DNA from: a virus | Length of the DNA stretch: 31,887 bases | Virus record (IMG/VR): IMGVR_UViG_3300025529_000004 | Span: 69,870 to 101,756 of that record | Direction: 5' to 3' (one strand) | Part shown: in pieces, positions 4,700 to 31,887 of the stretch | Numbering within the stretch: the stretch's first letter is position 1 | Layout of the letters: each line of letters starts with the position of its first letter | Program-made: the position numbers and the translations under genes | The notes under the pieces: model-generated | The model's database searches: none | The model's input: only the letters and a program-made list of their open reading frames with translations | Told to the model about the DNA's origin: nothing

Positions 4700-5692
4700 A
4701 TGGTGATGCTTTTGGGAAAAAGAAAATATGTTAAGTATGTAACACCTGAAAAATTAGAAAAAGTTAATCCCCAAAATAAAAAGTTGATAGAAAAATATTT
4801 TTCATATAAGAATATGAATCTTTCAGATGACACTAAGAAAAGCTACATGTCAGATTTTAATCAATGGCTCGTCTACATTATGGAAAATTATAATAATGAG
4901 TATATTTTAGATATTATTAAAAATGATGTTGATGACATGGTTGATTTGTTAGAGGACTATGTAGCTTTCTGCACTACGACATTCGGAAATAAAGAACGTA
5001 GAATTCAGAGGAGAGTAAGCAGTATAAGTTCTTTCTTTATATATTTACGCAGAAAAAGAAAGATTAAAGAAAACCCAATGGATTTTATCGAAAGACCTTC
5101 TGTCAAAGCTGGTGAAAAACCGCAAATTATTCAAACATTTTTATCTAAAGATCAAGTTGAGGAAATTCGAAGAAAGCTTGAGGAATTAGGAGATCTTCAA
5201 TTATATACATATTTTGAAGTTGCTTTAACTACAATGGCAAGAGTAAAAGCATTAAACAATATTAAATTAAATCAAATTAACTTTGAAGAAGGAATTATTG
5301 AACGAGTCATCGAGAAAGAAGGATATGAAGTTGACTTGTTCCCTTCTGAAAAAGGAATGGAATTGATTAAACAATGGATTGAATATCGTAAAGAAAATGG
5401 TATCGAATGTGAATATTTGTTTATTTCTAAACGTAATGGTCAATGGACTAAAGTTTCCAAAAATACAATGCAAATGAGCTGGATTAAAAAAATTGGGAAC
5501 TTAATTGGTATTCCTCATTTACATAGTCATGATTTGCGACATTCTTACAGCACACTTTTATACAATTCTGGAATGAAACTTGAAGATGTTCAAGATTTAT
5601 TGCACCACATGTCCCCTGATGTAACATTGAAACACTATATCAAAAAGGATGTCAATAAAATCAAAGATAATAAAAAGAAATTTGAAATATAG
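4700..5692 (+). CDS. Tyrosine recombinase (XerC/D-like; SPbeta YomM-like position)
   Basis: N-terminal SAM-like region (RRVSSISSFFIYL...ENP) and catalytic set R (TMARV), HDLRH, H (LHH), Y (TLKHY). Confidence 0.92.
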   Translation: MVMLLGKRKYVKYVTPEKLEKVNPQNKKLIEKYFSYKNMNLSDDTKKSYMSDFNQWLVYIMENYNNEYILDIIKNDVDDMVDLLEDYVAFCTTTFGNKERRIQRRVSSISSFFIYLRRKRKIKENPMDFIERPSVKAGEKPQIIQTFLSKDQVEEIRRKLEELGDLQLYTYFEVALTTMARVKALNNIKLNQINFEEGIIERVIEKEGYEVDLFPSEKGMELIKQWIEYRKENGIECEYLFISKRNGQWTKVSKNTMQMSWIKKIGNLIGIPHLHSHDLRHSYSTLLYNSGMKLEDVQDLLHHMSPDVTLKHYIKKDVNKIKDNKKKFEI

Positions 5693-30262: not shown

Positions 30263-31123
30263 ATGGGTAAGATTGTTGACCTGTCACATCATCAACCATC
30301 TAATAAAATAAATTGGTCTAAAGCAAGTAAAGAAATTGATTTAACAATTATTCGTGTTCAATACGGCTCAAAAACAGAAGATAGAGAGCATAAAAATCAT
30401 GTTGCCAACTGTAAGAAATACAACATTCCCTATGGTCATTATGCTTATGGATGTTTTGTGTCTGTTAATGATGCAATAAAAGAAGCAAATGATTTCCTTA
30501 ATCGTATCGATAAAGACGCTAAATTTCTTGCGCTAGACGTTGAAGATGATACGGTTAAGGCTTGTGGCACTCAAAATCTTGCAGCAGCTAGTCAAGCATT
30601 TATTGATACTTGTAAAAAAGCAGGTTATAAAGTAGGTTTTTATACTTCGCATGAACTTTATAATAAGTATGGTCTTAATAAGGTGAAAGCCGATTTCTTA
30701 TGGCTACCTAGGTATGGTAAGGATAATGGAACACCTGATTTAAAGCCTGATTACCCATGTGATCTTTGGCAATATAGCCAAAAATGTAAAGTATCATGGT
30801 ATGACGGTCTTGTTGATTTGAATTTGCTCAATGGTTCTAAACCACTGGAATGGTTTACGGGCAAACAGGTGCAAGTTGCAAATACAGCAGTAAATACACA
30901 AAATACTACGAAAAATGGAGGAATCAGAATGTATCAACCATCAAATTCTGAATTAATGAATGCCACTTTAAGAGTTTTGAGCCGATTATCTCAAAAAGAT
31001 CCAAACGGAATTAGCAAAGATTGGTACACTAAGGCTCAAAAAGGTGAAATTCCTTTAGATGATGTTGTTGGATTGCTTTATGTTGCTTTAGATCGTGAAT
31101 TGATTCAAGGATCAAATAAGTAA
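30263..31123 (+). CDS. Endolysin, GH25 muramidase
   Basis: IVDLSHHQ, GHYAY, LDVE, LWLPRYG, LWQYS, VDLN motifs. Confidence 0.92.
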   Translation: MGKIVDLSHHQPSNKINWSKASKEIDLTIIRVQYGSKTEDREHKNHVANCKKYNIPYGHYAYGCFVSVNDAIKEANDFLNRIDKDAKFLALDVEDDTVKACGTQNLAAASQAFIDTCKKAGYKVGFYTSHELYNKYGLNKVKADFLWLPRYGKDNGTPDLKPDYPCDLWQYSQKCKVSWYDGLVDLNLLNGSKPLEWFTGKQVQVANTAVNTQNTTKNGGIRMYQPSNSELMNATLRVLSRLSQKDPNGISKDWYTKAQKGEIPLDDVVGLLYVALDRELIQGSNK

Positions 31124-31138
31124 TTGTTACATACATAT

Positions 31139-31167
31139 AGCCCACTGGATTAACTTTCCGGTGGGCT
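31139..31167. terminator. Hairpin between convergent genes
   Basis: AGCCCACTGGA/TCCGGTGGGCT stem; weak U-tract. Confidence 0.6.
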
Positions 31168-31204
31168 TACAAAAGCTATAATTCTAATGCAATTTTCACT
31201 GAAA

Positions 31205-31375
31205 ATGTTACCCTAAAAAATTTAAGAAATCTTATTATATCAACGTTTTATCATCTCTCTGCTAACATCAAGATAATTTACTGATGTCACCCTAAAATAA
31301 TTAGGAAAACCAATAATATTAGGCTTTTCTCCTCCCTTCTGTCATTTTGAATTTTTGTTTTGTGTCACCCTAAAA
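31205..31375. repeat. Three direct repeats TGTYACCCTAAAA with 78-79 bp period
   Basis: Copies at 31206, 31285 and 31363; the first two extend to 33/45 identity. Confidence 0.85.
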
Positions 31376-31678
31376 TCAATATTTGATGAAATTTTTTCCA
31401 AATACAATTGGTTCATCGTCTTTTAGGTAAATTGTGAATAAGAGCTTGTCCTCCACTTCTATTCTTTCCACTTTGTTTTTGATTTCATCGTCAGTTAATT
31501 GAAAATCATATCGTTTGTTTATGGTGTTTTTTAGGAAATCCTCTTCTATTGGTATTCTTTTACATTCGCCATAATTATCATATCGTGAGCAAACATAAAC
31601 TCGTCTATTCCTATCTTTACGAGCTTTGAAATTCCCTCCACAGTGGAGACATTTTATCTTCTTGGAAAATAAAGGCAT
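31376..31678 (-). CDS. Stand-alone recombinase zinc beta-ribbon domain protein
   Basis: LFSKKIKCLHCGGNF...YVCSRY..YGEC..IPIEEDFL matches the zinc-ribbon domain of large serine recombinases; RBS GGGAGTG; no catalytic domain. Confidence 0.75.
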   Translation of the reverse strand: MPLFSKKIKCLHCGGNFKARKDRNRRVYVCSRYDNYGECKRIPIEEDFLKNTINKRYDFQLTDDEIKNKVERIEVEDKLLFTIYLKDDEPIVFGKNFIKY

Positions 31679-31702
31679 TAATAATCACTCCCTGATAAAT
31701 TG

Positions 31703-31711
31703 ATTATATCA
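31703..31711 (-). promoter_or_regulatory. Extended -10 promoter (TGnTATAAT) for the zinc-ribbon gene
   Basis: Minus strand reads TGATATAAT, ending 25 nt upstream of the ATG at 31678. Confidence 0.55.
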
Positions 31712-31714
31712 GAG

Positions 31715-31765
31715 AAACGTTGATACAATAAGGTTTTTATATGTATACAAGTTTTACATGACACC
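31715..31765 (-). other. Putative attachment junction (host 5' gene arm joined to phage arm)
   Basis: yyaL-like similarity stops after the CAT GTA codons (to 31755); followed by AAACTTGTATACATATAAAAACCTTATTGTATCAACGTTT. Confidence 0.7.
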
Positions 31766-31887
31766 AATGACATGTTGAATAGCCGATACTAACGAATACT
31801 GGCTTATTTTCAGATTTAGCCTTTTCAAATGCTTCATTTCCCCATGGATACCAATCTACAGGATTGTAGGCATGCTGCAATAGGTAA
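31737..31887 (-). pseudogene. yyaL: 5' fragment of thioredoxin-domain protein YyaL/SPATA20 (DUF255), interrupted by the prophage
   Basis: Minus strand [44 protein letters not shown] then KLVYI*; the family normally continues M..ESF. Confidence 0.88.

Follow-up and report, generated by a model that had tools for sequence, protein, structure and literature searches.

A stand-alone DNA-binding domain of large serine integrases, conserved with a repeat array behind its gene: a candidate local regulator in phages

Close to one end of the 31,887-nt stretch of viral DNA analysed here (the window, which is the final 31.9 kb of an IMG/VR record of 101.7 kb with a rated completeness of 66%), an intact 100-aa reading frame with cysteines at C10, C13, C30 and C39 is found on the minus strand (31376..31678). 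Judged from its predicted fold, the product, hereafter the Zn protein, is a complete DBD2/zinc ribbon of a large serine integrase minus the coiled coil, and it is one intact representative of a large, hitherto undescribed family of ~100-aa proteins. Reading from the sequences, and with somewhat less than even confidence, we propose that an integrase DNA-binding domain has been domesticated here and that it binds the array of repeats downstream of its own gene, where the recombination module borders on the lysis/late module.

The protein and its predicted fold

Residues 3-55 of the 100-aa protein match the Pfam family Zn_ribbon_recom (PF13408) with an E-value of 4.2e-10 and a score of 40.3 bits, which passes the gathering cut-off of 25.3 bits. 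A sequence-profile search of the PDB with the same protein gave zero matches. An AlphaFold model, built with nine relatives as input (pLDDT 85.9), had the LI integrase as its closest structure (4kis_D; Z 8.1, rmsd 3.3, 88 aligned residues, chain 265-455), and the Bxb1, PhiC31 and SPbeta integrases were also matched through DBD2 (Z 7.7-4.8; Foldseek, VIA). All of the top 20 structure matches are to an integrase DBD2, and the next ones, which are unrelated, fall below Z 3. The stretch of the model aligned to integrase DBD2 covers residues 1-89, closing strands included. The ~88 residues are spread over integrase chain spans of 190-230, with 100-140 chain residues skipped, and the site of the coiled coil holds just two short helices (46-57 and 63-69). 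This spread indicates that the Zn protein corresponds to a whole DBD2 in which the two short helices replace the coiled coil.

The features that make up the whole enzyme, namely the resolvase domain, DBD1 and the coiled coil, are absent. The charge is unevenly distributed, with a pI of 9.8 for the basic N-terminal half, which holds the zinc ribbon, and a pI of 4.5 for the acidic C-terminal half. Pfam, structure and charge together place the product as a stand-alone DBD2/zinc-ribbon protein. A preliminary description, made from the letters alone, had claimed a small protein with a zinc ribbon and a closing beta segment and with neither a catalytic domain nor a long coiled coil; the Pfam match and the structural alignment confirm it on both points.

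Family size and selection

A phmmer search returned 123 matches among 1.84 billion representatives, 102 of which are 85-135 aa long, and a word-indexed search returned eight relatives, 100-105 aa long, with identities of 49-98%. C10, C13, C30 and C39 are invariant, all four being kept across the family. The dN/dS ratio is 0.03 between the window gene and its 98%-identical copy in locus L008 (dS 0.29) and 0.08-0.22 in most of the deeper pairs with finite dS; one pair gave 0.48, with dS saturated. Two isolated phages, Geobacillus virus E3 and Psychrobacillus phage Perkons, also encode homologues. Scans of viral and species genomes with the family alignment recovered mostly the DBD2 of integrases and one true relative, in Virgibacillus, which was also the single genome with a match among 401 genomes of its order. 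A literature search for stand-alone proteins of this zinc-ribbon domain found no paper. One protein, P0114 (315 aa), has the N-terminal domain of a pyrimidine nucleoside phosphorylase fused to a Zn-family domain and probably derives from a deletion across a phosphorylase-Zn gene pair like those of E3 and L008.

A gene with a single integrase domain, positioned at a module border, might be taken for the decaying remnant of an integrase gene. This is extremely improbable in view of the dN/dS of 0.03, the 102 of 123 relatives that fall within 85-135 aa with the four Cys all present, and the homologues in two sequenced isolates. A survey for intact homologues, with dN/dS, had been suggested as a check; by length and dN/dS the gene proved intact, which refutes the remnant outcome. 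The description of the product as an integrase-derived zinc-ribbon protein, intact and under purifying selection, thus stands on the Pfam match, the fold and the dN/dS.

The yyaL' joint and the start signals of the gene

Upstream of the Zn gene, the window ends in an N-terminal fragment of yyaL (DUF255/thioredoxin-like; PF03190, E 5.7e-24), here yyaL', which lies at 31737..31887 on the minus strand and is broken after CHWCHV. The YyaL/DUF255 homology stops at ~31755-31760, which leaves 77-82 bp between the yyaL'/phage joint and the ATG of the Zn gene; the earlier estimate of less than 80 bp was close to the mark. The record ends 130 bp into yyaL'. In a relative, L007, a yyaL' piece that includes the start codon sits between the integrase and the Zn gene, and the window's yyaL', core and arm match this piece at 67% in an alignment that also covers ~40 non-coding bases in the arm, from which we take the att type to be common to the two. 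Since the record stops within yyaL' and L007 carries a phage-borne yyaL', the joint of the window could be an attL, or else an attP that has captured part of yyaL'. The 28-nt arm beside the joint had zero matches in an exact search of viral and metagenome contigs. The L007 piece (L007:5318-5590) consists of a 60-codon yyaL N-terminal part, a CHWCH core and the arm, in inverted orientation relative to the window, and is interrupted by a 31-nt hairpin-like insert containing a stop; it may be a captured fragment of the target gene or an assembly chimera.

No Resolvase (PF00239) or Recombinase (PF07508) domain was found in the whole 101.7-kb record, so the phage's own integrase presumably lies outside it. 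Upstream of the long tail gene, the window encodes a 330-aa protein of the tyrosine-recombinase family (4700-5692, plus strand; PF00589, E 3.8e-27), which may act as a second recombinase or as a regulator of the MrpR kind.

The Zn gene had been described as having its own promoter and ribosome-binding site. The second part stands, with a Shine-Dalgarno-like GGGAG 9 nt before the ATG (31688..31692, minus strand). As to the promoter, an extended -10 element, TGATATAAT (31703..31711, minus strand), is a putative candidate, and a similar TGnTATAAT is located upstream of the Zn gene in L004. However, the -35 is weak and the element is not among the promoters listed by our promoter scan, for which reasons an own promoter is plausible at best. 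A sigma-70-like promoter on the opposite strand (31700-31729, plus strand; TTGATT, 18 nt, TACAAT, with TG) is antisense to yyaL' and directed outward across the joint. The Zn gene is also bracketed by a 22-nt inverted repeat that is 91% complementary. One arm (31227..31248) contains the -10-like box of the second unit of the array described below, and the other, upstream of the gene (31715..31736), overlaps the outward sigma-70-like promoter. At the far end of the array, after the endolysin stop, there is a hairpin with no T run on either strand (31139..31167).

Gene neighbourhood in relatives and lysogens

Synteny around the Zn gene was seen in E3, Perkons, L007, L008, L010, L028, L029, L030, L043 and L044. 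In free phages and uninterrupted loci, the Zn gene is found behind a large serine integrase on the same strand. It follows directly in L010, L029, L030 and L043, after a pyrimidine nucleoside phosphorylase in E3, L008 and L042, after one small ORF in Perkons, and after the yyaL' piece in L007. The integrase is divergent from the Zn gene in L028, and in L044 a tyrosine integrase and HTH genes take the place of the serine integrase. The gene downstream is convergent in every locus and usually belongs to a lysis cassette. The Zn gene therefore has a fixed place on the map, behind a recombination module (serine integrase, integrase plus metabolic gene, or tyrosine integrase) or behind host DNA across an att site. 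In L009, the Zn gene begins 15 bp after the end of a full-length asparaginase gene (L009:96-1693), and the opposite strand upstream carries a separate Asparaginase_C fragment; these may be phage cargo or mark a host border.

In the lysogens L004 and L019, the Zn gene is the first gene inside the prophage. In L004 it follows comGA-comGB-comGC'. The SPbeta-like prophage here (L004:9523-10312; also L005 and L006) sits behind comGA-comGB and a 54-aa comGC, and by analogy looks like a competence-gene insertion of the kind made by Listeria comK phages. The complete lysogen Virgibacillus profundi P3-H5 (L019:9881-10040, L024:5861-6150) carries a ~166-kb prophage between tpx and its terminator, beside ytxK. 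At one end of this prophage, the Zn gene comes after tpx; at the other, 166 kb away, is the sole gene in the genome with a recombinase domain, which encodes a large serine integrase and reads outward towards ytxK. Both ends have the 11-bp core TAAGTAAATAT, and the tpx terminator has ended up at the far end. From these ends, the order in the excised phage is deduced to be integrase, attP, Zn gene. The crossover falls ~27 bp before the start of the Zn gene, so in this lysogen the gene can be transcribed from the host side only. The preliminary description had drawn a parallel with the geometry of SPbeta. The opposite placement in V. profundi agrees with it; L030, on the other hand, is an integrated prophage in a complete chromosome in which the integrase and the Zn gene are still adjacent, so the att site is not always between them.

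A conserved repeat array behind the gene

On the strand of the Zn gene, three direct repeats (A-boxes) follow its stop codon. The first, TAGGGTGAC (31364..31372, minus strand), has a GGG core starting 5 nt past the stop codon; the second, again TAGGGTGAC (31286..31294, minus strand), comes 78 nt later, and the third, TAGGGTAAC (31207..31215, minus strand), 79 nt after that. A GGGAGGAG box sits between copies 1 and 2 and a TTGATATAAT box between copies 2 and 3. The pattern TAGGGTRAC occurs three times in the window, each time in the array, against 0.09 expected, and a looser pattern finds the array plus one stray match across the 101-kb record. An SPBRE-type global operator was ruled out, the motif being confined to a single array in 101 kb.

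All 15 loci have two or three direct 8-mer copies with the core GGGYNRC on the Zn-gene strand, down to a protein identity of 31%. The first copy is 3-5 nt past the stop codon in 10/15 loci and within 36 nt in 14/15, with L029 (95 nt) as the exception, and later copies mostly follow at intervals of 78-112 nt. The core is GGGTGAC in most loci, GGGTAAC in L009, GGGCGAC in Virgibacillus and L044, GGGTCGC in L027 and L030, GGGCAAC in L042 and GGGTCAC in L043. Between copies there is a purine box (GGGAGG or GGGAAGAGG) ~35-45 nt past the repeat, followed by a TTGATATAAT-like (TGATATAAT-like) box. A conserved cis motif is thus linked to the Zn gene in 15/15 loci, as expected of a DNA-binding regulator with a cis array. 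The motif is absent from the integrase ends of SPbeta, which have no Zn gene. The repeats around the gene had been called att-like; they are real, but the conserved array follows the Zn gene whatever the att site, and the att-like label does not hold. A possible pac site was another reading that was set aside. In the genome records of E3 and Perkons, the array lies mid-record; in relatives of SPbeta, packaging has been reported to start near yonR/yonP (10.1101/2021.11.22.469490).

RNAalifold found zero consensus pairs in the array units of 11 loci, and an Rfam search of window positions 30900-31887 gave zero matches. For want of a common RNA fold and of an Rfam match, the array is read as a DNA element, and an RNA-structure reading was dropped.

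A one-residue code, relating position 22 of the protein to the repeat core, was promising on 11 loci and failed on new ones: position 22 is E or D where the core is GGGTGAC, yet L044 has E with GGGGCGAC, and two Zn proteins with Q at this position have different array cores. A scan of IMG/VR for two copies of TTAGGGTGAC spaced 65-95 nt apart gave 10 loci, none of which (0/10) had a Zn-family ORF. Most of these are unrelated 12-bp tandem iterons of other phages, and for this reason the scan is silent on the link between protein and array. For example, L031, L033-L036, L039 and L040 are unrelated viral contigs with 3-5 TAGGGTGAC copies at 12-bp spacing beside repressor-like genes. These 12-bp arrays appear, from sequence comparison, to be iterons or operators of another phage group, with the common 9-mer being coincidental.

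Is the Zn protein an RDF or integrase cofactor?

The preliminary description favoured an RDF or a competitor at the att arms, that is, a free DBD2 that would bind the integrase, its RDF or the att arms and so set the direction of recombination. Several observations are in keeping with this. Nine loci with visible upstream DNA have the Zn gene beside that of a large serine integrase, and the geometry in Virgibacillus is integrase-attP-Zn gene. All the neighbouring integrases have long coiled coils and hence would require an RDF, and known RDFs have no common fold (PMC11795197). In addition, the serine recombinases P0113 and P0117 have a second domain, similar to the Zn protein, fused at the C-terminus; against this, these recombinases are of a different class, have no coiled coil and occur in tandem pairs.

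Co-variation with the integrase is missing, however. The neighbouring integrases are ~25-30% identical to one another (one pair 49%) and the Zn proteins 33-68%; in L007 and L008, for example, the Zn proteins are 68% identical and the integrases 27%. The correlation between Zn-protein and integrase distances is not significant (Spearman rho 0.32, p 0.10). The clearest case is the window phage and L008, in which the DNA is 95.6% identical from the ATG of the Zn gene onwards, over 10 kb, with zero homology upstream of the ATG. L008 has the integrase, the nucleoside phosphorylase and then the Zn gene after a 16-bp gap with no att, and its first 10 kb (gyrase-integrase-phosphorylase) are absent from the record of the window. 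By alignment, then, the recombination module is swapped and the Zn gene has stayed with the backbone, a 98%-identical protein being paired with a different module. Exchange of recombination units has been documented among relatives of SPbeta (10.1101/2021.11.22.469490), and an RDF would be inherited or exchanged with the integrase and att as one unit; the Zn gene is not. Nor does an RDF role suit the homologue that is beside a tyrosine integrase in L044.

From locus to locus, the att arms (yyaL, comGC, tpx terminator) show no relation to one another, whereas the protein is conserved; such a protein is not expected to read them as a competitor, and that part of the earlier proposal finds no support. 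Transcription points the same way: in L008, E3 and L029 a gap of 16-52 bp separates the Zn gene from the same-strand gene before it in the integrase unit, and the Zn gene is probably co-transcribed with the integrase, in which case an RDF made in this way would oppose integration.

There are also rival candidates. Small ORFs of 43-81 aa are found before the integrase (L008:6433-6564, L010:7645-7890, L029:551-766, L007:3550-3717), and in L008, L010 and L029 the ORF is directly behind a Holliday-junction resolvase gene, the place that sprB has after yotM in SPbeta. Two of them are acidic, like SprB and CD1234. A PHROGs search with the small ORFs in the SprB position gave no family match. By position, they are better RDF candidates than the Zn protein. 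Altogether, we regard an RDF or cofactor role as unlikely, and the Zn protein is more likely to be a local DNA-binding regulator than an excision factor. The comparison is a warning that position by itself is a poor guide to an RDF: in these phages, swaps of the integrase module leave the gene on the attP side with the backbone.

Proposed function

In the mechanism that we tentatively prefer, the Zn protein would have retained the sequence reading of DBD2 and lost catalysis and synapsis. It would bind the array as its own cis element and act as a local transcription regulator or barrier, at the site where transcription coming from the integrase operon or an interrupted host gene runs into the end of the late/lysis operon. 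The Zn gene would then be part of the phage backbone, outside the exchangeable integrase-att-RDF unit, and not the cognate RDF. The link between protein and array is drawn from their co-location and joint conservation, and common descent of the gene and its 3' flank could explain this co-conservation in part. Other points also count against array binding. Binding sites of a regulator downstream of its own gene are unusual. The identical 9-mer in phages with no Zn protein belongs to unrelated 12-bp tandem iterons. In addition, a recombinase gene is almost always next door, which hints at a tie to recombination left out of the array-binding model.

A second possibility, less probable but worth serious consideration, is that the protein has a role independent of the array, for example as an RNA-binding translational regulator like Com of Mu, in targeting of host DNA or in counter-defence. 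The array would then be a separate, linked cis element, made up of promoters, terminators or sites for another phage protein. Small zinc-ribbon regulators exist in phages (Com, Ogr/Delta). A residue-to-base code simple enough to detect was not found in the sequences compared. The boxes between the repeats resemble extended -10 promoters and are aimed at the convergent gene, with no conserved product. On the other side, the fold is that of one particular domain, the DBD2 with which integrases read DNA, the first repeat is at most 36 nt from the stop codon in 14/15 loci over a range of 31-98% protein identity, and zero RNA structure was detected with RNAalifold or Rfam.

The gene and array might also form a portable boundary element, which we consider improbable. 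In this case the Zn protein would be made from transcription entering across att and would act as a roadblock by binding the repeats behind its own stop codon. The source would be the integrase operon in the free phage or the interrupted yyaL, comG or tpx in the lysogen, and the late/lysis operon would be shielded in proportion to the incoming transcription.

Comparison with known systems

The nearest known structures are the DBD2 of large serine integrases (LI/A118, 4KIS and 6DNW; Bxb1; PhiC31; SprA of SPbeta), with which the Zn protein has in common the fold over residues 1-89, the four-Cys zinc ribbon, the closing beta strands and the basic DNA-facing half. Unlike these enzymes, it has no catalytic domain, DBD1 or coiled coil and is a free protein of 100 aa, conserved independently of the neighbouring integrase. 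Serine integrases are major tools of genome engineering, and DBD2 decides which att half-site is read. If our proposal is true, a natural, free and strongly conserved DBD2 with a candidate cognate DNA motif would be a minimal system for studying sequence reading. In P0113 and P0117, which have two tandem zinc ribbons and no coiled coil, the second, C-terminal domain matches residues 3-87 of the Zn protein and is therefore a possible source of such a domain. There the domain is built into a complete recombinase, and these enzymes come as tandem pairs in other mobile elements; as evidence that the Zn protein is now linked to recombination, the match is weak.

SprB and other RDFs resemble the Zn protein in place, being beside attP and the integrase when excised and opposite the integrase in the lysogen. 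The Zn protein has no sequence similarity to SprB and is basic, not acidic; it also differs in having neither co-variation nor joint exchange with the integrase and in occurring beside a tyrosine integrase. P2 Ogr, P4 Delta and Mu Com are also small Cys4 proteins from temperate phages, with nucleic acid as their target; none of them gave a sequence or structural match to the Zn protein, and the likeness is a lead at most.

The closest parallel in concept is MrpR (YopR) of SPbeta, in which a tyrosine-recombinase fold has turned into a repressor that binds SPBRE repeats (PMC10516654). By analogy, both would be recombinase parts that no longer recombine, with a possible regulatory role on repeats in a large siphophage of Bacillota. 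The Zn protein differs in its serine-integrase DBD2 fold, in having a single local array as opposed to genome-wide repeats, and in a function that is inferred. If that function is correct, large phages of Bacillota would offer two instances of a recombinase part taken over for regulation, MrpR of SPbeta being the first.
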